Below the pieces are notes generated by a model. The model was not told where the DNA came from, ran no database searches, and was given only the letters and a program-made list of their open reading frames with translations. From positions 1 to 30,215 of IMG/VR virus record IMGVR_UViG_3300029930_000008: a DNA stretch of 30,215 bases; one strand, written 5' to 3'. Both the position numbers and the translations under genes were made by a program. Every line of letters begins with the position of its first letter. The first letter of the stretch is position 1. Origin of the DNA: a virus (Duplodnaviria; Caudoviricetes). Below, one piece after another: positions 14,112-26,622 of this stretch.

Positions 14112-14748
14112 TCAGCCAGTTTATAAACCGTAGGGTCATTTAGACCCTACAGGTTTATGGCTACGCCCTGATGGTTCCTGTTACAGTGCGCTGTTCAGGG
14201 CTAACTATCTGGCTGGCTGATAGGGGCGCTGAGTAGAACAGTTTAGATAAATAGAAATGCTGGCTCAACGAGCCCATTTCTGTTTATCTGTTCTGGCTCC
14301 CCGCAAAACAAGGTTGTCTTTTCAGCCTTTGTTTTGCCGGAGCGGAACACCAGAAACAAGCCAAGGACTGAGTGGCTTTTGTTTCTGATTTTGTGTTCCA
14401 TCAGTCAGCACCGGAAACTAGCCCCCGCAAGGTTGCTTCGGCTCGCTGTTCCGAGCAGAGGATAGCAACGCTGGACGCTGTGAGCAGTGTCCTGTGAGGG
14501 GCTATGAAATCTGCTCTATCCTCACATTTCTGCGCCCGATTTCGCGTCTTTGCGAAATCCTGAGCACTGCCGCTCTTAGCGGTCTGCTCTGATTTCTGAC
14601 CGAAAGTTCGGGCTTGTCAGGATGGAGCACTTCGGTTCCATTTTCTGACAACCTGCCTTCTGCCGCACGGGCTGTGAACTTGGCAGCCTACCACGCAAGC
14701 GTGGTTTTTGGGCTGCCGTTCACGCACCGTGCGTGACAGAAAGCAGGT
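14112..14748 (+). ncRNA. Candidate large structured non-coding RNA or leader (~640 nt; could instead be folded ssDNA)
   Basis: Nine or more back-to-back stem-loops and multibranch domains, with recurrent G.T pairs on the + strand and no credible ORF. Confidence 0.65.
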
Positions 14749-14753
14749 AGAAA

Positions 14754-15104
14754 ATGAAACACGAAGTATCCTTCCAAGCAGCCGAACTTTCCGGTCTGGA
14801 AATCAAGACCGCAAAGAACGGCAAGGATTACGCAAAGGGCGTAATCGTTCTTAGAAATGATGAGGGCAGATTTCAAGCATCCCTCCCATTCCTCTGCTTC
14901 ACAGCAGCGGTTGCTAACCTCCGCTCCTTGGAACAGCAGGAGCACTCAGCCGACCTTGTCGGTGGAGTTTCCGTTACTGAGGCTGATGGAACTAAATCAG
15001 AAGCCAAAGAGCCACGCCCTGTGGCTAATGTTTCTGGCTGGTTCCGCACCAGCAAAACTGAAAAAGGCTGGACAACCTCGTTTATGGTGGAGAGCCTGAA
15101 CTAG
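14754..15104 (+). CDS. SSB/PriB-like OB-fold protein (putative)
   Basis: Alternating beta-strand pattern (LEIKTAKNGKDYAKGVIV; VANVSGWFRT; TSFMVESL); similar to 16483-16788; followed by a terminator. Confidence 0.55.
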   Translation: MKHEVSFQAAELSGLEIKTAKNGKDYAKGVIVLRNDEGRFQASLPFLCFTAAVANLRSLEQQEHSADLVGGVSVTEADGTKSEAKEPRPVANVSGWFRTSKTEKGWTTSFMVESLN

Positions 15105-15109
15105 ATAAG

Positions 15110-15140
15110 AAAAGGGCTGGTGTTGAGCCAGCCCTTTTTT
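15110..15140 (+). terminator. Intrinsic terminator
   Basis: AAAAGGGCTGG-tgttgag-CCAGCCCTTTTTT just after the stop at 15104. Confidence 0.75.
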
Positions 15141-15184
15141 ATTATCTAAATGTTCTGGCTTCCTTTATGACTGATGTCCTAGCC

Positions 15185-15417
15185 ATCTCCTTACCATCAG
15201 GCGTAGCCTATCGTTGGCAAACGATAGCAAGGTTACCCAATGATGGTATTGAGATTCAAAAGAATCCTGAGTGTCTTACGAGTCCAATGAGATTAGGTAA
15301 GAGAGCGCACCAAACTACCACAGGCAGGCATACCCGCCGTCAAGTGGTCGCTCCTGATAGCAACGATGGCTCGCACTTGACTGCGGTGCCAGCCTGTGGT
15401 GAGAGAAAAGCGCTCTC
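15185..15417 (+). ncRNA. Second structured non-coding domain (three long stem-loops)
   Basis: Stems 15185-15255, 15268-15298 and 15301-15417 (GAGAGCGC/GCGCTCTC, ACCACAGGC/GCCTGTGGT, GTCAAGTG/CACTTGAC). Confidence 0.55.
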
Positions 15418-15421
15418 AAGG

Positions 15422-15431
15422 TGAGAGTGTA
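15422..15431 (+). repeat. 10-bp direct repeat TGAGAGTGTA, right copy
   Basis: Identical to 14091-14100. Confidence 0.7.
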
Positions 15432-15451
15432 GGTAGATAAAGGAGATTGAT

Positions 15452-15631
15452 ATGTTGAAAGATTGGTTTATAATAGGTGCTAGATTATGTTGTAATTGTA
15501 AGGTTGATATAGATGTAAAGAATGAAGGTATTGATTGTGAAGATTTAGGTAAAGAACATAAGTGGCACAATGATAGTTGGGAAGATATGTGTTGCGTATG
15601 TGGTAGAGATTACGAAATGTTATATAAATAA
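15452..15631 (+). CDS. Small Cys-rich hypothetical protein (59 aa)
   Basis: SD AAAGGAG; MLKDWFIIGARLCCNCK...MCCVCGRDYEMLYK with two CxxC-type pairs. Confidence 0.75.
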   Translation: MLKDWFIIGARLCCNCKVDIDVKNEGIDCEDLGKEHKWHNDSWEDMCCVCGRDYEMLYK

Positions 15632-15639
15632 AGGAGACT

Positions 15640-15909
15640 ATGATGAAAGTATATAAAAGAGGCAGTGAGCCTAAAGGTTGTACCTATGTTGGTAGAGGTA
15701 GTGATTGGGGTAATCCTTTTAGGATTGGATATGATGGTACAAGAGCCGAAGTTATTAGTAAGTTCAGGCTCTATGCTATACAAAGAATAGCAAAGCAGAA
15801 AGATTGGCTAGTGCCGTTAGTTGGCAAAGACTTGGTGTGTCATTGTGCGCCCAAGGCTTGTCACGGAGATGTTATTATTGAACTTATTAGAGACCTACGA
15901 ATCGGATAG
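15640..15909 (+). CDS. DUF4326-family protein
   Basis: YVGRGSDWGNPF...LVGKDLVCHCAPKACHGDVI family signature. Confidence 0.85.
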   Translation: MMKVYKRGSEPKGCTYVGRGSDWGNPFRIGYDGTRAEVISKFRLYAIQRIAKQKDWLVPLVGKDLVCHCAPKACHGDVIIELIRDLRIG

Positions 15910-15963
15910 CCCTGACAACGGGTGCCAGGGCTATCCTCACAACGATATATAAAGGAGACTAAA

Positions 15964-16404
15964 ATGAAAGAAGTTGTGGAAGTATCTAATGGTATGGCAA
16001 TTGTAACAAGTTGTTATGATTGTCAGACTTTATCCGACTATGAACTGAAGTGTAGAGTTTGTGACGAGTCGGATGAGGCTAGAGTAGATGAGTTAGCCTG
16101 GAGTCACAGGGCTGATGAACGCTTGGCAGAAGATGATGTGATTACTGATATCAAAGAAGAACCATCTGGCTCAGACTGGATTGGTAGTGAGACAAGAGTC
16201 AAAGGTAGTAAGCGTATTCGCAGTGAGTTCAAGCCTAGTACCTATGACCTGCGAGATAGATGTCCAAGTACTTACTTCCTAGGTAGTCATATCTTTGATT
16301 TAGATGAAGATGAGGGACGTTCTCGGATTCATATGTTTGAAATAGTATGCCCAAAATGTAACTTGGTGTATCCTAAACGAACAGGTTGTTTAGAATGTAA
16401 GTAG
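15964..16404 (+). CDS. Hypothetical Zn-binding protein
   Basis: ATG 15964 after AAAGGAGACTA; four CxxC pairs. Confidence 0.75.
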   Translation: MKEVVEVSNGMAIVTSCYDCQTLSDYELKCRVCDESDEARVDELAWSHRADERLAEDDVITDIKEEPSGSDWIGSETRVKGSKRIRSEFKPSTYDLRDRCPSTYFLGSHIFDLDEDEGRSRIHMFEIVCPKCNLVYPKRTGCLECK

Positions 16405-16482
16405 TTTGTATAGCGGTTCCCGCCCGCAGGCGAGGCGGGAGACCGCTCCAAGATAAATATAAACAATATAAAGGAGACAGAA

Positions 16483-16788
16483 ATGAATACAGTACAAGTA
16501 ACAGGTTATATCAAGAATGTTCAGGAGCGAGGCTCTGGTAACTACAAGGTTATAACTGCAAACCTTAGCCAACGAAATGATGAAGGCAAGTGTGTCTTTA
16601 CAATGCCGTTGGTGTTTACTTCTCCAGATACCAAGAATACATTGGCTAATGTTTCTTGGGTTGATGGAGTATCACAAGTCGTAACACTAACTGGAAGATT
16701 AGTTACACGATTTGACCGCCGACCAGGGATTGATAATTCTGAGCGTCGCGCACCTTATACACAGATAGAAGTTGTATCTGTAAACTAA
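16483..16788 (+). CDS. Single-stranded DNA-binding-like OB-fold protein
   Basis: MNTVQVTGYI...VTLTGRLVTRF...YTQIEVVSV matches the SSB pattern (MNxVxLxG; VxGxLxxR; TxIxV). No acidic tail. Confidence 0.7.
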   Translation: MNTVQVTGYIKNVQERGSGNYKVITANLSQRNDEGKCVFTMPLVFTSPDTKNTLANVSWVDGVSQVVTLTGRLVTRFDRRPGIDNSERRAPYTQIEVVSVN

Positions 16789-16848
16789 CCTAGGAACGGT
16801 GGGGCTGGAACTACCTGCCCAGCCCCACCTCTAATAAAGGAGACTAAA

Positions 16849-17004
16849 ATGTATTTAGATACAAGCACGCTAGTTGCTGTAGTAATAGCACTAGTATCTC
16901 AATTGATTATGATTATAGTTCTATTTCGTTCTACTTATAAGTGGGAACAACATTACAGAGACGCAATCCGCATACTCAAAGCCGAAAGGATAGCACGCAA
17001 ATGA
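16849..17004 (+). CDS. Small membrane protein (51 aa)
   Basis: SD AAAGGAGACTA; MYLDTSTLVAVVIALVSQLIMIIVLFRS... single TM helix; ATGA overlap with the next gene. Confidence 0.75.
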   Translation: MYLDTSTLVAVVIALVSQLIMIIVLFRSTYKWEQHYRDAIRILKAERIARK

Positions 17005-17243
17005 AGACTGTATATATGACAAAGCGCTGCCCAGTATGTCTAAAGGTGGGCAGTCTTGTAGTAGATGAGCACGAGTTGTTTGCTTATCTACGTGGTAGTT
17101 ATGTACAAGAAGCATTCAAAACTCTTAGCATTCCTTTGAGAGAACAGATAATTAGTGGAGTTCATCCACACTGTTGGGAGGAATTGTGGGGAGAAGAAAG
17201 AGTCAACGAAAACATAGGAGACTACAGTGATGTCAATGACTAA
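17001..17243 (+). CDS. Hypothetical Zn-binding protein
   Basis: ATGA-coupled start; CPVC...REQIISGVHPHCWEELW. Confidence 0.75.
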   Translation: MKTVYMTKRCPVCLKVGSLVVDEHELFAYLRGSYVQEAFKTLSIPLREQIISGVHPHCWEELWGEERVNENIGDYSDVND

Positions 17244-17370
17244 AGAAGATAAGTATTTCAAAGCAGAATGTCAGAAGTGTGATTGGCAGTTGGTTATTCC
17301 AGTATGGGATAAGAATGATGAAGACTATTATCTCTGCCAATCTTGTGCCTTCAGTAAGGTAGGTATGTAA
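17230..17370 (+). CDS. Small zinc-ribbon protein (46 aa)
   Basis: SD AGGAGACTA; CQKC...CQSC. Confidence 0.7.
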   Translation: MSMTKEDKYFKAECQKCDWQLVIPVWDKNDEDYYLCQSCAFSKVGM

Positions 17371-17543
17371 TGAGAGATGAAAATTATCTAAAGAATCTAG
17401 CCGAAGTAGCACGCTGGCTAGATAGTTTGATAGCAGAAGTCAATCATATAAACGAGACAGTTGAAGACTTGATAGCAGAAGCGCCAGTATCTCTGGCAGC
17501 CTGGGATAAAGTAGGAGAGGAACTATGGACGCAAAAGAAGTAG
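17370..17543 (+). CDS. Hypothetical protein (57 aa)
   Basis: TAATG coupling, SD AAGGTAGG; MRDENYLKNLAEVARWLDSL... Confidence 0.65.
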   Translation: MRDENYLKNLAEVARWLDSLIAEVNHINETVEDLIAEAPVSLAAWDKVGEELWTQKK

Positions 17544-17704
17544 CAAAGATAAGAGGACTAGCAATGACTTACGCTAAAATGTTTCTAATGCACAAGTATA
17601 AAGAAGAATATGATGAACTCTATAATGCTTATCTAAAAAACAGAGGTTTATCTACCAGAAAGTTTCGTGAACCTTTGATAGATGAGAGGACAGTAAGTGA
17701 ATGA
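17525..17704 (+). CDS. Hypothetical protein (59 aa)
   Basis: SD AGGAG; MDAKEVAKIRGLAMTYAKMFLMHKYKEEYDELY... Confidence 0.65.
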   Translation: MDAKEVAKIRGLAMTYAKMFLMHKYKEEYDELYNAYLKNRGLSTRKFREPLIDERTVSE

Positions 17705-17792
17705 AGTTATCATTCCGCACATCTCAACACCAATCACCTGGCTATACCTCATTGCAATTGGGTATTGCCTATACAGAGGGATTATTAAATGA
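17697..17792 (+). CDS. Small membrane peptide (31 aa)
   Basis: GTG start after GAGAGGA; MNEVIIPHISTPITWLYLIAIGYCLYRGIIK; ATGA overlap with the next gene. Confidence 0.55.
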   Translation: MNEVIIPHISTPITWLYLIAIGYCLYRGIIK

Positions 17793-18214
17793 GAAACAAA
17801 TTAGCGATGCTATTGAGTTGGCTCTTAGCATTTTCATCAGCAGTATTTCCAGTACAGTCGTGGGCACTCAAAGCAAAGAAAGACAACTACGAGCCCACCA
17901 GGAATCATCAGAACGAGATTCGTTGGACGAAATCCTTGAGCAAGTACTATGCGAAGGCACTCATCTCAGCACAGTATGAAGAGTGGGGAGAATCAGAATT
18001 CCGTGCGTTGAAAAAACTATGGGGTAAAGAATCTGCGTGGGACCATACTGCAGATAACCCGAAGTCAACAGCGTATGGAATACCGCAACTGTTAGGACTG
18101 GCGCCAAATACGCCAGCCCCCGAACAGATTGCACGGGGGCTGGCTTACATCCAGCACCGATACGGCAAACCATCAATTGCTTGGGCACATTGGCGCAAGC
18201 ATAAGTGGTACTAA
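17789..18214 (+). CDS. Secreted SLT-type lytic transglycosylase (lysozyme-like fold, actinobacterial type)
   Basis: Signal-peptide-like N-terminus; catalytic KESAW, ADNPKSTAYGIPQ, QIARGLAYIQHRYG..AWAHW..HKWY. Confidence 0.8.
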   Translation: MRNKLAMLLSWLLAFSSAVFPVQSWALKAKKDNYEPTRNHQNEIRWTKSLSKYYAKALISAQYEEWGESEFRALKKLWGKESAWDHTADNPKSTAYGIPQLLGLAPNTPAPEQIARGLAYIQHRYGKPSIAWAHWRKHKWY

Positions 18215-18235
18215 ACAATAAACAAAGGAGACTAT

Positions 18236-18658
18236 ATGGCAAGAAGGAATCAAGGCATCAATGTCAAAGTGCCTAGAGCCAAAGTAATCAAGGCTCTTGA
18301 GCAGGCATTGATTAAGTTAGAAACTAACTACAAAAATCAAGAAGCAAATGAAAAGAAATATGATGCTGCTATAGATAAGTGGCGTAAACAAATTGCTAAA
18401 TTAGCACTAGCAAAAATCAATAAGGCTACAAATCTTAGAGCAAATGTTCGTTATAATGGTATTATAAATCTTGATTTTGATTTACCAGCAGGCTCAATAA
18501 ATCTACCAACAGAACCAGAGAAAGACTATGAGGTTATGCTTGAATGGCAATACAAAGATAACAAGGAAGAAATTGAGAATGCTATTCGTGTTCTAAATAT
18601 GTGCGATGATGAACACATCAGCACTGCAACCTATGGCGGAATCAGTAAGTATCTATAA
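18236..18658 (+). CDS. Hypothetical protein
   Basis: SD AAAGGAGACTA; 140 aa. Confidence 0.75.
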   Translation: MARRNQGINVKVPRAKVIKALEQALIKLETNYKNQEANEKKYDAAIDKWRKQIAKLALAKINKATNLRANVRYNGIINLDFDLPAGSINLPTEPEKDYEVMLEWQYKDNKEEIENAIRVLNMCDDEHISTATYGGISKYL

Positions 18659-18668
18659 GGAGACAACA

Positions 18669-18878
18669 ATGATAATCAAACATCTAGTGGAACTAGAGAC
18701 AGTAATCAATGAAGAATCAGATGCACTACCAGCCAAACTAATTCTAACTATGCCAGAAGAAGAACGCAATAAATTCTTTCAAGAAGCAGGCGAAGGAATG
18801 ATTAGTCAATTTCTTGAGACGGCTAATGAAGGTAATAGTTGGGCATTCATACGCATAGCAAAGAAGGCTTCAGTATGA
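18669..18878 (+). CDS. Hypothetical protein
   Basis: ATG 18669 after AAGGAGAC. Confidence 0.7.
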   Translation: MIIKHLVELETVINEESDALPAKLILTMPEEERNKFFQEAGEGMISQFLETANEGNSWAFIRIAKKASV

Positions 18879-19873
18879 CAACAGATACAGTGATAGCAAC
18901 AGTTCCTTTGAAGAACCTAAGCAACTGGGTAAAGTCAGGCAAAGCAGTAACAGCCACTTCAGCCAGCGATGTAGCCAGACAAGCAGGACTTGACTGGTCA
19001 GTATCTCTGCACGAGATGTCTGCTTCCTATGCAATACCAGGAACAGAACAGTCCAGAGTGTTAGAAGTCCGCAACAAGTTAGCGGTAGTCAAGACAACAC
19101 CATTCGGTGATACCGATGTTATTGGTGTAGTCGGCAAACGGTATCAGGTATTCCAGAACGGTGAAGTATTCAGCGCTCTGGATGCATTGATTGATTCAGG
19201 TGAGGCTCGCTATGCAGCAGCAGGCGAGTATGACCACGGAGCAAAGGTATGGATGTTGCTTCAGTTGCCTAATGAAATCAATATTGCTAATGACCCACAC
19301 GCTGCATTTATCTTGGCTAGAACTAGCCACGATGGCAGCAGTTCAGTTATTATCAAGCCAATCATTGAGCGTTTGTTCTGTAGAAATCAAATCAACAAAA
19401 TATTCAGGAACAAAAATCAGTTCACATATACCTTGAAACATACTAGCAATAACAAGTTAGATGTTTCAGACATACGCAATATCTTGCAATTGTCTTACCA
19501 AAACATTGAGGCTTATACTCATATTGGTAATGAACTAATTAGTAAAGAAGCATCTAGAGATAAAGCAGTTGATTATTTCAAGAGGGTGTTTCCTTTACCA
19601 AGCAAGATAGAGAATGCTCCCATTTCTCTGCTATCTGTTGGAGAAAAACAGCAGTTGACCAGGGCAAATGCAGCCAGACACAAGGCTATGGAAATCTATA
19701 CAGCCAGCCCGACTCAAGAAAATATCCGTGGAACAGAGTTCGGTTTGTGGCAGGCAGTTGTGGAGTATGCCGACCACGGCAAACAGGATAAAGGTACAAA
19801 GACAGGAGTCAGGGCTATGTCAGGTGGCTCTGATAATCTCAAACTTCGTGCCCTTGAACTACTAACAGCATAG
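18875..19873 (+). CDS. DUF932-family phage/plasmid protein
   Basis: AGLDWSV, GVVGKRYQVFQN, G..VW, TSHDGSSS, RLFCRNQ, HT, GT.FGLWQAVVEYADH motifs; ATGA-coupled start. Confidence 0.88.
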   Translation: MTTDTVIATVPLKNLSNWVKSGKAVTATSASDVARQAGLDWSVSLHEMSASYAIPGTEQSRVLEVRNKLAVVKTTPFGDTDVIGVVGKRYQVFQNGEVFSALDALIDSGEARYAAAGEYDHGAKVWMLLQLPNEINIANDPHAAFILARTSHDGSSSVIIKPIIERLFCRNQINKIFRNKNQFTYTLKHTSNNKLDVSDIRNILQLSYQNIEAYTHIGNELISKEASRDKAVDYFKRVFPLPSKIENAPISLLSVGEKQQLTRANAARHKAMEIYTASPTQENIRGTEFGLWQAVVEYADHGKQDKGTKTGVRAMSGGSDNLKLRALELLTA

Positions 19874-19883
19874 GAGACTAACA

Positions 19884-20039
19884 GTGATAGTAACTAGTAA
19901 AGATGCTGACAAGATTCTTAATCTTGTTAGTGGCAGTAGCAATCCAGTTCTTCAAAAAGTAGATGAAATAATTTGCGCCATACAAGAAGGCGACGAAATT
20001 GAATACCAAGATGAAGACTACGAAGAAGAAGGAGACTAA
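19884..20039 (+). CDS. Small acidic hypothetical protein (51 aa)
   Basis: GTG after AGGAGACTAA; fills the intergenic gap. Confidence 0.65.
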   Translation: MIVTSKDADKILNLVSGSSNPVLQKVDEIICAIQEGDEIEYQDEDYEEEGD

Positions 20040-20041
20040 CT

Positions 20042-20476
20042 ATGGAATACATATACACAGATAAAGACGGTAATCAAACCAAGTTTACCGATGAGATGGT
20101 CAAGGCAGCGCTAGATGAGCGTGCTCAACTACGTATTGACTTGGAAGAAAAAGATAATTACTTTCATAATCAACGCACAAAACTGTATCAAGTACGAGCA
20201 GAAGTGTATAACTTTTTCTCAGAAAGATACAGTCCTGGCGATGAAGAGATTGTATGTAGCAAAGATGATGTCAATGAGTTACTAGAATCTATTGGCGCAG
20301 ATAAACTCAAGTCTATGTGGACAGTCAGTGGTCGTATTGAATTTACAGTGACTGATATTGAAGCAGAGACAGAAGATGATGCTCGTGACCAAGTTGAAAA
20401 CAATTTGACCGTAGAGTTTGACGGTAATATTGTTGACGATTACTCAATAGATATCAACGACGTAGACCAGCAGTAA
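20042..20476 (+). CDS. Acidic hypothetical protein
   Basis: SD AAGGAGACTAA; 144 aa. Confidence 0.75.
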   Translation: MEYIYTDKDGNQTKFTDEMVKAALDERAQLRIDLEEKDNYFHNQRTKLYQVRAEVYNFFSERYSPGDEEIVCSKDDVNELLESIGADKLKSMWTVSGRIEFTVTDIEAETEDDARDQVENNLTVEFDGNIVDDYSIDINDVDQQ

Positions 20477-20480
20477 CTAA

Positions 20481-20651
20481 ATGCCAAAGATTGCAGACCA
20501 CAACTATGTTGAGGCACTGCCATCTGGTAGTTGTCTGGCAGGCAAACACTCGGAGTGCAGAGGTTCTTGGGTCGGAATCAAAGCACTTAGGAGACCGTGT
20601 GATTGCCAATGCCACGCCGATGAGAATGGTGTCATATCCTCTTCCGTCTGA
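20481..20651 (+). CDS. Small Cys/His Zn-binding protein (56 aa)
   Basis: MPKIADHNYVEALPSGSCLAGKHSECRG...RRPCDCQCHADENGVISSSV; weak SD. Confidence 0.55.
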   Translation: MPKIADHNYVEALPSGSCLAGKHSECRGSWVGIKALRRPCDCQCHADENGVISSSV

Positions 20652-20706
20652 TACCATTCGCACAGAGCACGGGCTGGTTTTTGATTAGTCTCCTTTATCA
20701 GCCCGT
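20624..20706 (+). ncRNA. Tandem hairpins with anti-Shine-Dalgarno loops (candidate regulatory RNA)
   Basis: GAATGGTGTCA[TATCCTCTTCCGTC]TGATACCATTC and ACGGGCTGGT[TTTTGATTAGTCTCCTTT]ATCAGCCCGT. Confidence 0.6.
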
Positions 20707-20733
20707 CTCTCTAACTAAGGAGACAAGGATTTA

Positions 20734-21519
20734 ATGAGACAAGAAATTGATAGAGACCGCTATGGTCGTCCTTTAGTAGTACCTAATAAGGGAGGCAAAC
20801 CAGTCGCTTATACTAGGGCTACTACAATTGCAAACAGTCTTGATGATGCAGCAGCATTGACAGCCTGGAAAATGCGGATGGCAGCCATTGGTCTTACAGT
20901 TCGCAAAGATTTATTACTTGCTATTAACGCAGCGCAAGATGACAAGATGGCTATTAACAAGTATATAGAAGATGCTATGGAAGTAGCAGGCGCTAGCAAG
21001 GCAGCGACTATTGGAACAGCACTGCATAGTTATGCAGAGCGTTTAGATTTGGGACAGGACATTGGTCTTGTACCAGACGAGTGGGCAGGGGACATACTTG
21101 CTTACGAGAAAACAACAAAGCAATTAAATAAAATCTTTATAGAACAGTTCTGTGTACTAGATAAGTACAAGATTGCTGGAACACCAGACAGAATTGTTGA
21201 GTATAAAGGTGAAAGATTTATTGCTGATATCAAAACAGGTCGGATAGACCACCCAAATAACATAGCAATTCAGTTAGCAATATATGCACACGGCTCCCCG
21301 TATGACATTGCTACGGGTCGCCGTGGTACTTGGGGAGAAATCAACAAGGAGAAAGCCATTATCATCCATTTACCTGCAGGTACAGGGCTATGCAAATTAG
21401 TATGGCTTGACATTGCAGAGGGTTATAAAGGGCTACAATTCGCAATGAAAGTAAGACAGTGGCGAGACAAAAAGGGTCTTGCTACTCCATTTGAAGAACA
21501 GGAGACAATCAGTGGCTAG
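20734..21519 (+). CDS. PD-(D/E)XK exonuclease (RecB/Cas4-like)
   Basis: GTALHSYAE, IAGTPDRI, IADIKTG, IQLAIYA motifs. Confidence 0.88.
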   Translation: MRQEIDRDRYGRPLVVPNKGGKPVAYTRATTIANSLDDAAALTAWKMRMAAIGLTVRKDLLLAINAAQDDKMAINKYIEDAMEVAGASKAATIGTALHSYAERLDLGQDIGLVPDEWAGDILAYEKTTKQLNKIFIEQFCVLDKYKIAGTPDRIVEYKGERFIADIKTGRIDHPNNIAIQLAIYAHGSPYDIATGRRGTWGEINKEKAIIIHLPAGTGLCKLVWLDIAEGYKGLQFAMKVRQWRDKKGLATPFEEQETISG

Positions 21520-21982
21520 CACTGAAGCACCAATCAGTATCACAGTAAAGTCAGGCGCAGGTTCATTAATTACAATTCGTGCAGAGCACGGAGATGAACT
21601 AGACCAACTAGTAGCAACATCACTTGAAGCAATCAAGTCTGCATATACAGAACTTGAATCAGCAGTTAGAGGTGCAGCGCCAGCAGCACCAGCAATGTCA
21701 ACTAATCAAATTGCAGCAGCACTTGGTGCATCTGTAATTGACAACTCTGCAAATCTAACAGATTACAATGCGACAGGTTGGGCTACTCCAACATCATCCA
21801 TTGGTGGCAAGGCTTGTCCTCACGGCAAGATGACAGCCATTCAAGGCACAGGTAAAGACGGTAAAATGTATCGTGGTTACTTCTGTCCAGCACCAAAAGG
21901 TGCACTAGATAAATGCAAAAATCAGTATGTTCGTGCTGGTTCAGCCGAGTGGAACACATTCATAGCCGATTCGGTTAAGTAG
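21512..21982 (+). CDS. Hypothetical replication/recombination-associated protein with C-terminal Zn motif
   Basis: GTG 21512 after AGGAGAC; CPHG...GYFCP...C; lies between the exonuclease and helicase genes. Confidence 0.6.
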   Translation: MASTEAPISITVKSGAGSLITIRAEHGDELDQLVATSLEAIKSAYTELESAVRGAAPAAPAMSTNQIAAALGASVIDNSANLTDYNATGWATPTSSIGGKACPHGKMTAIQGTGKDGKMYRGYFCPAPKGALDKCKNQYVRAGSAEWNTFIADSVK

Positions 21983-22800
21983 TGAGAACACTCAAACGCA
22001 GTATTAGCAAAGCAGAGGTGGGTGGCGAACCATTGCCACCCGCTTTTGCGGCATTTGAACGGGCAGGAATTATCTTGCGCCGTGCAGAAATCACGATGGT
22101 TGCAGGCACTCCAGGTGCAGGCAAATCATCTATAGCACTGGCAATAGCAGCCAGAGCAAAGGTGCCAACGCTGTATTTCAGCGCAGATACTAATGCTCAT
22201 ACGATGGCTATGCGTCTAGTTGCTATGTCTGCAAAGATGTCGCAGCAAGCAGCCGAGCAATTGCTAAAAAGAAATCCAGAAGAAGCAGAAGAAATTCTTA
22301 CCCTGAACAATCATTTGTTCTGGTCCTTTGAGTCAACACCCACTCTAAAAGATTTAGACGACGAGGTATCAGCATTTGAAACTGTATGGGGTAGAAGTCC
22401 TACGCTTATCGTTGTGGATAACCTGATGGATATTGCAATGGATGGTCACGAAGAATTCCAAGGTATGCGAGCGGCAATGAAAGAGTTGAAGTATCTTGCA
22501 AGAGATACCAATGCAGCAGTGCTTGTTTTGCATCACACCAAAGAAGGTTTTGATGGTTATCCTTGCCAACCACGCAGCGCTATCCAAGGTCTAGTTAATC
22601 AGATTCCAGCAATGGTTCTGACTATTGGACAAATGAAACAAGGAGACGAAACCTATCTATGTGTAGCCCCAGTCAAGAACAGATACGGGCGAGCAGACCA
22701 GACTGGTAATAACTATGTCAGCCTTGCTTTCAACCCAGACAATATGTATTTAGATGATGTCCAAGTTAAGTATATGCAGGAGACAGTATATGGAAACTAA
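21982..22800 (+). CDS. DnaB-like (RecA-fold) helicase/ATPase
   Basis: Walker A GTPGAGKS, Walker B LIVVDNL, LKYLARD...VLHH, VKNRYG arginine finger. Confidence 0.88.
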   Translation: MRTLKRSISKAEVGGEPLPPAFAAFERAGIILRRAEITMVAGTPGAGKSSIALAIAARAKVPTLYFSADTNAHTMAMRLVAMSAKMSQQAAEQLLKRNPEEAEEILTLNNHLFWSFESTPTLKDLDDEVSAFETVWGRSPTLIVVDNLMDIAMDGHEEFQGMRAAMKELKYLARDTNAAVLVLHHTKEGFDGYPCQPRSAIQGLVNQIPAMVLTIGQMKQGDETYLCVAPVKNRYGRADQTGNNYVSLAFNPDNMYLDDVQVKYMQETVYGN

Positions 22801-22966
22801 AGTATGGGATTGTTCTTTCTCTAAGGAAGATATAGAAGTCTTTCAAGGAAGAGCAATAACAGAAAGTGAATGGAGTATTGTTGTTGATGAGTTGTATAAC
22901 GATGATGAACTCTATGAAATAGTACAAAAAGCAGTAGCAAGAGTAGCAAATAAAGCACTTGAGTAG
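22790..22966 (+). CDS. Hypothetical protein
   Basis: ATG 22790 after AGGAGAC. Confidence 0.65.
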   Translation: METKVWDCSFSKEDIEVFQGRAITESEWSIVVDELYNDDELYEIVQKAVARVANKALE

Positions 22967-23303
22967 CGCAGCCAAACGCAAAGGTAGCCAAGCAGAACGA
23001 GATGTTGTTGCTTGGTTGAAGGCTAATGGTTACAAGTATGCAGACCGCAGACTTGCAGGAGCAACCTTAGACAAAGGCGATATAAGCGGTGTGCCAGGTG
23101 TAACTATTGAGATTAAGAATCACGCCAAAATGGACCTTGCAGGATGGCTAGCAGAACTAGAAGTTGAAATGAAAAATGATAATGCCTGGACAGGTGTTGT
23201 CTTACATAAACGAAAAGGGAAAGGAGACGTAGGCGAATGGTATGCAACTATGCCTGCAAAAGTATGGTTGGCATTGCTGAATCAAGCAGATGGAAAAACA
23301 TAG
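22959..23303 (+). CDS. Holliday junction resolvase (Hjc-like PD-(D/E)XK)
   Basis: KRKGSQAERDV...DKGDI...IEIKN. Confidence 0.8.
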   Translation: MSSAAKRKGSQAERDVVAWLKANGYKYADRRLAGATLDKGDISGVPGVTIEIKNHAKMDLAGWLAELEVEMKNDNAWTGVVLHKRKGKGDVGEWYATMPAKVWLALLNQADGKT

Positions 23304-23682
23304 CATTGAAGCATATTTAAATTATATTGGCGCCACCGTGCCCTCCCGTGGACACGGCTGGCGCAAAATAAAATGTCCGTTTCATTCAGATAAACACGCA
23401 TCAGCAGGTGTTAACTTTGATGAAGGAAGATTCAAGTGCCACGGATGTGGTGTTGGCGGAGATGTATACGATTTGATAATGTACAAGGAAGGAGGTAACT
23501 ATCGTGAGGCTGTCAAATTCGCAGAGACAATTTCTCCTACAGGCAACTCAAGAGTACGCCCAGCACATACATCAAGCAGCAGATTATCTGGCAACTCGGG
23601 GTCTGTCGGTAGAAGAAGCCAAGAGATTTCATTTAGGAGTAGTGGACAATCCATTGCCAGGACACGAAGGCTACAAGGGTAA
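23290..23682 (+). CDS. DNA primase zinc-binding (CHC2) subunit
   Basis: CPFHSDKHASA...FKCHGCGVGGDVYDLI. Confidence 0.85.
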   Translation: MEKHSIEAYLNYIGATVPSRGHGWRKIKCPFHSDKHASAGVNFDEGRFKCHGCGVGGDVYDLIMYKEGGNYREAVKFAETISPTGNSRVRPAHTSSSRLSGNSGSVGRRSQEISFRSSGQSIARTRRLQG

Positions 23683-24136
23683 GTTAGTAATACCTTACAT
23701 AACACCGTCAGGTGTAGTAGACATTCGGTTCCGCAGTATCAATGGAGAGGACCCGAAGTACATTGGTTTGCCAGGAGCAAAGACTTCAATGTATAACGCA
23801 CAAGCAGTGCTAACAGCAGAAGGTTATATCTGCGTCACTGAAGGTGAGATAGATTCTATAACAACAATAGTAAAGACTGGACACCCAGCAGTTGGTATTC
23901 CAGGTGCTAATAATTGGAAGCCACATTACACAAAAATACTTGATGATTTTGAAACAGTTATTGTATTAGCAGATGGTGATGCACCAGGGCTAGAGTTTGG
24001 TAAAAAGATTAGTAGAGAATTAGGCAATGTAAATATAGTTCAAATGCCAGAAGGACACGATGTAAATAGCATTGTGCTACAAGAAGGAGGCGAGTGGTTA
24101 AATGAGCGGATTAGAAAATGTTTTTCGGGACAATGA
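23504..24136 (+). CDS. DNA primase TOPRIM subunit
   Basis: YLATRGL, VTEGEID, ADGDAPG, DVN motifs; own SD GGAGGT before GTG 23504. Confidence 0.88.
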   Translation: MRLSNSQRQFLLQATQEYAQHIHQAADYLATRGLSVEEAKRFHLGVVDNPLPGHEGYKGKLVIPYITPSGVVDIRFRSINGEDPKYIGLPGAKTSMYNAQAVLTAEGYICVTEGEIDSITTIVKTGHPAVGIPGANNWKPHYTKILDDFETVIVLADGDAPGLEFGKKISRELGNVNIVQMPEGHDVNSIVLQEGGEWLNERIRKCFSGQ

Positions 24137-24410
24137 TGAGTTTTGGCAATATGTTAAAGAAAATCCTAGGATGGTTGGAATACCAGTATCGGAGAATAAA
24201 GGTCTGGATTTACTTGGCGCACTTAGGGATGTTAGAGAGGCTTACCAAAAAGACACAGAGATAGGCGATACAATGCTGACGCTGCTAGGTACCCTGTTGA
24301 TGGGCACAGCCAACGGTGACGGCGAACAGATGATAGAAGAAATCATAGTTTCAGAGGCTATGGTGGATATAGATAATGGACTGAAAGAGGTACTAGATGA
24401 AGAGCATTGA
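24102..24410 (+). CDS. Hypothetical protein
   Basis: SD AAGGAGG; in operon. Confidence 0.7.
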   Translation: MSGLENVFRDNDEFWQYVKENPRMVGIPVSENKGLDLLGALRDVREAYQKDTEIGDTMLTLLGTLLMGTANGDGEQMIEEIIVSEAMVDIDNGLKEVLDEEH

Positions 24411-24702
24411 TAACTTGGACGAGATTCTTACAGAACTCAAAATCACTATGGTTCAGAAACATCAAGACTATGGTCCCTACAATATAGCCCACGCTCCAGG
24501 CGGGGCTATGAATGGGCTACTGGTGCGTATGCACGACAAAACAGAACGACTTCAGAATCTTTACTTCCATCGTAAGGGCAACACGCCGAACTATGAATCT
24601 ATTGAAGATACCCTAAAAGACCTAGCAAACTATGCCATAATAGGACTTATGGTACAAAGAGGTTATTGGGAAGGTCTGAGTGGAGCCGGATTACATAACT
24701 GA
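24397..24702 (+). CDS. DUF1599 / nucleotide-modification-associated all-alpha domain protein
   Basis: KHQDYG...VRMHDKTERL...ESIEDTLKDLANYAII pattern. Confidence 0.75.
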   Translation: MKSIDNLDEILTELKITMVQKHQDYGPYNIAHAPGGAMNGLLVRMHDKTERLQNLYFHRKGNTPNYESIEDTLKDLANYAIIGLMVQRGYWEGLSGAGLHN

Positions 24703-25333
24703 ATATGAAGCCTTAGTGGCTTCATTGTCGGTTGAATACCACCGTAAGTATCCAATGATTGAGTCATTGGATATACAGCAGACCCTTTGGTTATGGTTTA
24801 TAACTCATACTTCTAAATACTTTGAATGGTCAGAGTTAGAACAAAAGGACAAAGATAAATTAATTGCAAAGTCTTTGCGTAATGCAGCCCTAAAGTTTTG
24901 CGAAAAAGAGAAGGCTAAGTCGGTGGGCTACGAGTTGCTTGACTTGTACTACTACGACTCATCGGTAGTTGAAGCCTTTATGCCCAGCATTATTGCTGAG
25001 TCATATGAAATACCAATTAAAATTAAAGACTTAAATCATAAGTTTAATAAATCAGAAGCCGTCAGTGATGGCAACAACTGGCTGGTATTGCGTAGCGATA
25101 TAGCAAATGCTTTCTTCAAACTAACAGAGGCTAAACAGAATGTGCTTCGGGTTAGATTCAGCACGGATAACAACGAGTGGAATCTGGTGGCAAAGGATTT
25201 AAATACAACAATAGATGGCGCTAGGATGAAAGTTCAACGGGCTGTCAATTCATTAATCAGAAACCTAGGTGGATGGAGACCATACCCCGATGATGAAGTA
25301 CAACAGGCAGACCAGAGTGACGAATCAGAGTAA
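24680..25333 (+). CDS. Sigma-factor-like transcription regulator
   Basis: Region-2-like DIQQTLWLWF...LRNAALKFCEKEK; region-4-like HTH LTEAKQNVLRVRF...VAKDLNTTIDGARMKVQRAV. Confidence 0.7.
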   Translation: MEPDYITEYEALVASLSVEYHRKYPMIESLDIQQTLWLWFITHTSKYFEWSELEQKDKDKLIAKSLRNAALKFCEKEKAKSVGYELLDLYYYDSSVVEAFMPSIIAESYEIPIKIKDLNHKFNKSEAVSDGNNWLVLRSDIANAFFKLTEAKQNVLRVRFSTDNNEWNLVAKDLNTTIDGARMKVQRAVNSLIRNLGGWRPYPDDEVQQADQSDESE

Positions 25334-25553
25334 AGATATTAGGGAGTTGCTGCGTCGTGTGGACTACAGCAAGTCAATGGACCTACGGGATACGCCGATA
25401 GGTGATATCTGTGTATGTGGTTGTGAAGTATTTGTAATGCTAGGTGGCTTTGTAGATGGAGAAGTAGCCTTTTATTTTCTAGATGGTGAGTGTGCTTCTT
25501 GCGGAAGTATGGTCACCCTGCCTACACCAAAGGATGACGATGCCAACGTATGA
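25317..25553 (+). CDS. Small Zn-binding protein (start uncertain: 25317 or 25376)
   Basis: CVCGC...CASCGS. Confidence 0.65.
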   Translation: MTNQSKDIRELLRRVDYSKSMDLRDTPIGDICVCGCEVFVMLGGFVDGEVAFYFLDGECASCGSMVTLPTPKDDDANV

Positions 25554-25713
25554 TTTTATCTGCCCTATTTGTAACAAGATAGAAGAGAAGTTTTTTTCTG
25601 TTTACTCTAATCACACAACATTCTGTGATGTATGTAAAGTAGAAATGGAAAAAACTTTTCAGCCAACTCCAGTGCATTTCAAAGGCACAGGCTTTTACAA
25701 GACGGGCGGATAA
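25540..25713 (+). CDS. FmdB-family zinc-ribbon protein
   Basis: MPTYDFICPIC...CDVC...FKGTGFYKTG signature. Confidence 0.85.
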   Translation: MPTYDFICPICNKIEEKFFSVYSNHTTFCDVCKVEMEKTFQPTPVHFKGTGFYKTGG

Positions 25714-26111
25714 TGAAAGAACAAGACTTATTTGAGTATCTAAAAACTACTCACTTCCCTGATTTAGTTCGTTCCGAAAATGTATTTGACCACTTTGATT
25801 GCACTACAAAAACAAATAATCTATACATAGAACTTAAATGTAGACATACCCATTATCCAGATTTATTAATTGAAGAAATAAAATACAGACGATTACTGGC
25901 TCAGGCTGATGGTATGCTTCCTTACTATATAAACTCAACACCTGAAGGTATTTACGCATTTGATTTATCAAGCACACCAGAACCTGAATGGTCAGAAAGA
26001 TGGATGCCTAGAACTACAGAGTTTGTAGATACAAGAAAGAAGATAAAGTTAGTAGGCTTCCTTAAACTAGAACACGCCCAAGTATTATCTAAGTCCGATT
26101 GGAATAACTAA
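25713..26111 (+). CDS. PD-(D/E)XK nuclease-fold protein
   Basis: E...FDC...YIELKCR. Confidence 0.6.
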   Translation: MKEQDLFEYLKTTHFPDLVRSENVFDHFDCTTKTNNLYIELKCRHTHYPDLLIEEIKYRRLLAQADGMLPYYINSTPEGIYAFDLSSTPEPEWSERWMPRTTEFVDTRKKIKLVGFLKLEHAQVLSKSDWNN

Positions 26112-26599
26112 TGGAAATAATTCTTGATAAAAAAGAAATAGATGAAGCATTAAACTTTGTGAATACTATGCGTCAAGATAAAGTTCAATATAAAGTAATA
26201 GACAGAAAATTTGACGCCAAGAACACATCTTGGGCTGTTAATCTTATGGGCTATCTAGGTGAGAAGGCGGTAGCCAAGGCGTATCAAGTACCAGTAGATA
26301 ATAGAGTTCTTACTGGTGGAGATGAAGGTCACGACTTGGTAATCAATGGCAAAAAAATTCAAGTCAAAACATCAACCCTAGATAAATTAATATTCAATGC
26401 GTTAGAATTATTTACTGCAGACTATGCTATCTTAGTTACCTTGATTGGAGATAGGCAGCAACCTCATATAAATTCTAAATTTAAAATATGGGGTGCTATA
26501 TCTAAAGAAGATTTTAAGCAGGTGTGTTATCAAAAAGACTATGGTTATGGTATGAGATTTGTATGTAATACCGAACATCTAGCCCTAAAAGATTTCTAG
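26111..26599 (+). CDS. PD-(D/E)XK nuclease-fold protein
   Basis: GYLGEKAV...GDEGHDL...IQVKTS. Confidence 0.6.
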   Translation: MEIILDKKEIDEALNFVNTMRQDKVQYKVIDRKFDAKNTSWAVNLMGYLGEKAVAKAYQVPVDNRVLTGGDEGHDLVINGKKIQVKTSTLDKLIFNALELFTADYAILVTLIGDRQQPHINSKFKIWGAISKEDFKQVCYQKDYGYGMRFVCNTEHLALKDF

Positions 26600-26622
26600 C
26601 CAGTTAGGGGAAGACTGGATAG

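Follow-up and report, generated by a model that had tools for sequence, protein, structure and literature searches.

Why would a phage place a hairpin at the head of its replication genes with a loop antisense to the ribosome-binding sites (RBSs) of the genes before it? The question is raised by a virus record of the Caudoviricetes, IMGVR_UViG_3300029930_000008, whose full 30,215 bases are referred to here as the window. The hairpin is located just ahead of a Cas4-like exonuclease gene (20734..21519, plus strand; phrog_466, E 1e-61), the first gene of the replication cluster. The small genes upstream of it are presumed, from position and content only, to be early genes. A first-pass annotation of this DNA had proposed a discrete small RNA of 40-90 nucleotides (nt) that blocks their translation. 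The hairpin element is real, conserved, and structured, and comparison among relatives supports its specificity well. Rather than a separate small RNA, it most probably forms the 5' leader of the replication-operon mRNA, and we think it probable, with considerable room for doubt, that this leader damps early translation in trans.

In the window, the leader hairpin spans 20664..20710 on the plus strand and contains 14 base pairs (bp), with 20664-67 and 20669-78 paired with 20697-20710. Its predicted energy is -21.3 kcal/mol (z -5.4), and none of 200 shuffles of 20664-20710 was equally stable. The 10-bp stem described earlier (20669-20678/20697-20706) is reproduced with one G-U pair and extends by 4 bp more. 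Complementarity and pairing energies mark the loop, an 18-nt pyrimidine-rich sequence at 20679..20696 (plus strand), as antisense to the RBS tag AAAGGAGACTAA. The 14-nt match that the first-pass annotation assigned to this loop exists, but only 12 of its 14 bases are in the loop. Two features were overlooked by that annotation, namely a second hairpin at 20624-20659 and an extended -10 promoter motif, TGA-TACCAT (TGnTAnnnT), at 20649..20657 on the plus strand. The +1 predicted from this motif, at about 20664, coincides with the base of the stem.

The tags fall at the Shine-Dalgarno (SD) position of plus-strand open reading frames (ORFs). The longest pairing covers 16 nt at 15436..15451, ahead of ORF 15452, and is 88% complementary with an energy of -18.3 kcal/mol. 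Matches of 14 nt precede the ORFs starting at 15964 (15949..15962) and 16849 (16834..16847), and a 13-nt match belongs to ORF 15640 (15628..15640). Eleven nt are matched for ORFs 16483 (16468..16478), 18236 (18224..18234), and 20042 (20029..20039), 10 nt for ORF 19884 (19872..19881), 9 nt for ORF 17227 (17216..17224), and 8 nt for the ORF starting at 18669 (18657..18664). Eight of these matches had been listed before and were reproduced exactly in position and length, and the 16-nt pairing was recovered as well; the earlier count of about nine genes missed the tenth start, 18669. Of 300 shuffles of 14700-26600, none yielded a 14-mer antisense and one yielded an 11-mer. With the loop as a probe, pairing at -15 kcal/mol or better is found at 10 of 18 upstream starts and at none of 14 minus-strand positions. 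Downstream on the plus strand it is found at 2 of 14 positions, a set in which two positions missed the true start by a few bases. All tagged starts in the window lie upstream of the hairpin and on the same strand.

Conservation was assessed using four scans of viral contigs, which supplied the best 80 loci each of 175, 308, 235, and 570 relatives. These gave 256 distinct loci in addition to the window; three were too short upstream, leaving 254 evaluable. The hairpin is found in all 254, window included, next to exonucleases down to about 60% identity. It lies directly ahead of the exonuclease in 253 (250 located by an automatic finder and three repaired by hand). In the other locus, L233, it is one inserted small gene further upstream, about 270 nt before the exonuclease, and thus keeps to the operon start rather than to the exonuclease. 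The element is limited to this family, since just 1 of 33 distant exonuclease loci (genome contigs and other distant matches) has the hairpin, the low-GC locus L286 at 73% identity. L286 (5850-5990) has a variant leader with three predicted hairpins, the first of which bears the anti-SD loop about 120 nt before the exonuclease. The SD of the L286 exonuclease itself is different.

The stem is less conserved than the loop and is maintained by covariation. Compensatory two-sided changes are seen at 8 of 10 consensus stem pairs among 33 sequences, comprising the window and 32 of 51 hairpin variants, a set that excludes the GGAGATA clade and a few more. Isolated non-Watson-Crick positions in the stem are G-T in 21 cases and A-C in none. 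Of 105 unique hairpins, 75 fold more stably as the plus strand, a comparison with a mild bias from loop limits set by plus-strand folds. In each of 59 leaders, the hairpin dominates the fold.

The promoter motif accompanies the hairpin. TGnTAnnnT occurs within the 32 nt upstream of 49 of the 51 distinct hairpin variants, compared with 2.7% of random windows, and the extended -10 motif is absent from 5 of the 254 loci. The distance from the motif to the first paired base is 4-10 nt in 239 of 246 cases, 4 being the floor of the method. It is presumably a working promoter. A U-tract after the stem, taken as at least five T in the next 8 nt, is seen in 0 of 59 leaders, and an intrinsic terminator was rejected on this count. 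Because the motif lies just upstream and no U-tract follows, the hairpin is best read as the 5' end of the operon mRNA, and the discrete 40-90 nt RNA proposed before is disfavored by the same two features.

The second hairpin (20624..20659, plus strand; -14.7 kcal/mol, z -6.3) is an optional element. Its 3' arm holds the -10 motif, with which it overlaps in the clade of the window; it is missing from some other clades. Its loops are variable, reading CCTTTC or CCTTCC and being G-rich in some clades. No consistent target in its own genome was found for this loop, and complementarity of 8-9 nt to the SD of the scaffold gene occurs in just two of five complete relatives. A role for the loop as a second antisense seed is unproven, the best match in the window being only 8 nt. 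Operator, processing site, and second seed are all conceivable roles for the hairpin. The L081-L113 group, one set of clades, has a conserved small hairpin motif (CCCGCC...GCGAACACGGG) upstream of the promoter motif and some 100-150 nt ahead of the exonuclease.

The loop changes with the tag. The first-pass annotation had named covariation of the loop with the early RBS consensus of each relative as its decisive test, and the loop is conserved and co-varies with clade-specific early tags. A first comparison used 36 non-redundant loci with a similar GC content across loop classes (0.39-0.46). Where the loop predicts GGAGACT, this is the leading class, at 58 of 165 early RBS sites. Loops predicting GGAGATA accompany GGAGATA at 37 of 58 early RBSs and GGAGACT or GGAGACA at none. 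Loops predicting GGAGACA accompany that tag at 25 of 62 sites and GGAGACT at one.

A second comparison used 60 representatives of 125 loci with at least 3.5 kb upstream and 635 starts called independently of the loop. The longest loop match averages 6.72 nt at a genome's own early RBSs versus 5.91 nt for other loop classes, and 8.91 versus 7.23 nt at the top four sites per genome. The corresponding pairing energies over all early RBSs are -11.86 versus -10.23 kcal/mol. In a permutation of classes, 0 of 20,000 were as extreme (p<5e-5), though loop classes share ancestry and such p-values overstate independence, which weakens this support. Downstream genes are not tracked by the loop, in match (5.42 versus 5.36 nt, p=0.57) or in energy (-10.05 versus -9.70 kcal/mol, p=0.33). 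Values for the exonuclease SD are 7.21 versus 7.08 nt (p=0.08) and -12.23 versus -11.29 kcal/mol (p=0.077). When changes were placed on a quick tree of the 60 genomes, the loop predicted the commonest sixth base of the tag in 52. Concordant changes of loop and tag fall on about four branches: a deep C/G split, a six-genome T clade, L081 (A), and L208 (T within the G clade). Loops without CUCC (L216, L231, and L233) accompany upstream sites of the AAGAGAGA type, and the next downstream SD remains AAAGGAGA. A different use of the sequence, as the RBS of a minus-strand gene, was rejected: a start codon 3-13 nt after GGAG occurs in 1 of 60, where it opens an ORF of 14 codons.

In the phage collection, the window's closest named relatives are OX376640 (labelled LanE43-AprE7) and OX376641 (labelled AprF5). 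Identities to these relatives are 61% for the terminase, 73% for the portal, and 57% for the helicase. Two phages cultured on Ca. Planktophila bear matching names in the available text of PMC10202952, and for this reason the host of the window is taken to be actinobacterial, probably of the Nanopelagicales. The exonuclease of E7 is unrelated to that of the window, yet it is preceded by a 56-nt hairpin (L271:31633-31688; -29.9 kcal/mol, z -7.2). The loop of this hairpin is antisense to another tag, GACAGGAGA, and 7 of 68 called starts show a 9-nt match. Six of these belong to small genes on the opposite strand, and the seventh is that of the exonuclease, whose SD carries the full 9-nt tag; at structural genes the match is 6 nt or less. 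Any pairing with the six small genes must be in trans, as they lie on the opposite strand. No canonical extended -10 motif was seen directly before the E7 hairpin. A long TA-rich run just upstream of that hairpin is possibly a replication origin.

The proposed mechanism starts with transcription of the replication operon. The leader hairpin, at the predicted 5' end of the mRNA, would then display its loop. Protected at the end of the transcript, the loop would pair in trans over 8-14 bp with the tagged start regions of about ten presumed early genes. Occlusion of an SD blocks initiation, and paired start regions would be closed to 30S loading, so that early protein synthesis would be turned down. 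The acting RNA could be the leader of the full mRNA or a processed 5' fragment. A single transcript would in this way couple production of replication proteins to damping of the early ones. Loop-tag pairing, repression, and timing are each predicted from sequence comparison. Action in trans is favored because the tagged genes of E7 are on the opposite strand. The original idea of a trans-acting anti-RBS RNA is partly supported: the loop tracks the tags, and a separate small RNA is disfavored.

Several observations weigh against this mechanism. The loop and tag disagree at the sixth base in 8 of 60 genomes, and at the seventh base in L028. Tracking is confined to two tag positions, with none beyond the seventh base. 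The largest clade tracks weakly, with the predicted G at 59 of 171 sites and A at 77. A genome class is matched best by its own loop class in just 4 of 10 cases (5 of 10 on the top four sites), and five of the 10 classes are single loci. The usual pairings are only 8-12 bp. As corrections to the first-pass annotation, downstream positions 21512 and 24102 of the window pair with the loop at -16 kcal/mol, about equal to the weaker upstream sites, and GGAGACA, described by the first-pass annotation as the weaker variant of downstream genes, also occurs upstream at 16468 and 18657. In F5 (L272), which has the same element as E7, the loop is one base off and most tags are unchanged. An analogous loop has diverged in three cluster K phages, discussed below, and the tag has not. 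How a housekeeping-type promoter is delayed is unexplained by the model. Lastly, the exonuclease SD pairs with the loop as strongly as the average early RBS (-12.2 versus -11.9 kcal/mol), with partial tracking. For this reason, a cis contact between the loop and this SD may coexist with trans action.

A stricter version of this last point holds that the element is a cis switch only. Here, the loop would form a pseudoknot with the exonuclease SD (AAGGAGAC, 20717..20724, plus strand, an 8-nt complement of the loop), or the 3' arm would sequester that SD, tuning exonuclease translation. The average energy of -12.2 kcal/mol is compatible with this, as are the short distance from stem end to SD (median 3-9 nt by class), the whole 9-nt tag at the E7 exonuclease SD, and a longer fold in the window with a near-isoenergetic, SD-sequestering alternative. 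Against these stand the dominance of the hairpin in 59 of 59 leaders, where the 3' arm offers just a weak alternative (-1 to -9 kcal/mol), and the poor tracking of the exonuclease SD (7.21 versus 7.08 nt, with the genome's own class ranking best in 1 of 10). Stronger binding to the loop than that of the exonuclease SD is seen at a median of five early RBSs per genome, and just 3 of 57 genomes lack any such site. Tracking of the upstream tags by the loop is also left without explanation, and we consider a purely cis role unlikely. The joint change of loop and tag is equally predicted if the tag is a DNA-level operator bound by a phage protein, with the inverted copy just past the promoter motif as one more site and protein specificity driving both. 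A wobble-asymmetry comparison (30/227 versus 2/48, p=0.085) did not separate these readings. The inverted copy, however, always occupies the loop of a hairpin whose stem covaries and has G-U pairs instead of A-C ones, tags coincide with the SD position, and no candidate protein was identified, making an operator improbable.

The loop could also act as a generic anti-SD RNA against host mRNAs, producing host shut-off, with the phage matches as a by-product of SD similarity. Its core presumably resembles the 3' end of 16S rRNA. The loops of the upstream hairpin are likewise pyrimidine-rich without clear phage targets, and cluster K loops remain pyrimidine-rich without tracking their repeat. Yet in each clade the loop follows bases that are private to the phages and lie outside the SD core, and its strongest predicted targets are the phage's own genes in a comparison covering phage start regions; host shut-off is about as improbable as the operator. 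A stable stem at the predicted +1 could protect the mRNA end, and the hairpin might do this alone, or act as a terminator, with the loop as a neutral inverted copy of the RBS. We regard this as very unlikely: the loop exceeds the stem in conservation and changes with the tags, and the T-rich stretch expected after a terminator stem is absent from the 59 leaders.

The surroundings of the element were annotated by scanning the 35 window proteins against PHROGs. The minus strand encodes the terminase, portal, and other large genes. The plus strand from 14754 to 20651 encodes a series of small genes, mostly of unknown function. Downstream of the exonuclease, the replication cluster (21982..25333, plus strand) has PHROG matches to a DnaB-like helicase, a RusA-like resolvase, a primase in two ORFs, and a sigma-factor-like gene. 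The latter (phrog_354, 24680-25333) is a candidate late-gene activator inside the cluster. Three more GC-rich hairpins are located among the upstream genes at about 15110-15141, 16413-16446, and 16798-16829. The one at about 15110-15141 has an A run before it and a T run after it, resembling a bidirectional terminator.

No description of the hairpin element, or of an mRNA leader that reads a phage RBS tag, was found in the literature searched; the element may stand among the unnamed candidate RNAs in the supplements of PMC5737381 and PMC10690425. Three loop sequences were not found in the PMC10690425 supplement files that were searched, which are part of the set. The closest RNA parallel is the c4 antisense RNA of phages P1 and P7. 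In the accessible part of PMC12197685, complementary sequences of c4, likely in loops, pair near the RBS and block translation. The hairpin described here likewise has a loop complementary to a target RBS region. c4 differs in that it targets the ant mRNA in temperate-phage immunity, whereas here one loop fits a tag on about ten genes and belongs to an apparent mRNA leader. The element also lacks an Rfam match: Rfam 15, including the C4 family, gave none at 20600-20740 at E up to 1 and no gathering matches in seven related loci.

The Cuckoo (RSs0680) small RNAs of Alphaproteobacteria are cellular and contain 2-4 hairpins that each bear the fixed loop CCUCCUCCC (PMC4615179, in the text available). 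As described there, they resemble the phage element in having variable stems under a conserved anti-SD-like loop. Unlike theirs, the phage loop differs between clades, in step with the tag of each phage. CCUCCUCCC is absent from all loop types listed for the hairpin family, which places the element outside the Cuckoo definition.

Mycobacteriophages of cluster K carry the start-associated sequence (SAS), an extended, phage-specific RBS repeat that precedes many genes and of which four K1 phages have a single reverse copy; in the text available from PMC3203893 its function is unexplained. SAS is a 13-bp sequence, GGGATAGGAGCCC, before start codons, and differs from the window tag both in sequence and in belonging to a different phage family. 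The lone reverse SAS of K1-type mycobacteriophages is placed by prediction in the loop of a GC-rich hairpin, as in Anaya (L273:31871-31883); the loci of this observation are L273, L277 (Adephagia, record 58682), L276, L279, and L281. Among ten further matches, four have the reverse SAS in a hairpin loop, three have a hairpin with a diverged loop, and three have none. Covariation failed here, since Amgine, Krueger, and Phrank keep SAS while the loop has diverged, and the portions examined of the right-hand regions of TM4 and Pixie lack a reverse copy. In Adephagia, the gap between genes 92 and 93, which holds the reverse SAS, is where late transcription appears to start, according to the portion of PMC11373665 available. 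With such mixed evidence, extension of the leader logic to SAS is a lead only, and it supplies a testable hypothesis for a repeat unexplained since 2011. More tentatively still, a temporal gene class might be barcoded by a private SD extension that is read by the 5' leader on the mRNA of the following class. The exonuclease SD may sit in the loop in cis until longer-pairing early mRNAs capture it, giving a reciprocal RNA switch (early off, replication on), and the same logic might apply to the K1 SAS; we would not expect this wider scheme to hold as a whole.

In lytic phages, the known cases of early-gene shut-off work through proteins, among them T4 RegB. This endoribonuclease inactivates early mRNAs via GGAG-containing translation initiation regions and needs S1, according to the available text of PMC3014915. 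No RegB-like match was seen among the 35 window proteins scanned against PHROGs, in which no dedicated RegB search was made. The task predicted for the leader is the one described there for RegB, the silencing of early mRNAs through GGAG-containing initiation regions. RegB is a protein nuclease, whereas here an RNA would read the tag, and cleavage forms no part of the model. E7 and F5, cultured on Ca. Planktophila LanE-43, make the leader model testable. If it is true, an mRNA leader that silences a gene class via a co-evolving RBS tag would represent a protein-free staging of the phage program in an abundant group of freshwater actinophages.
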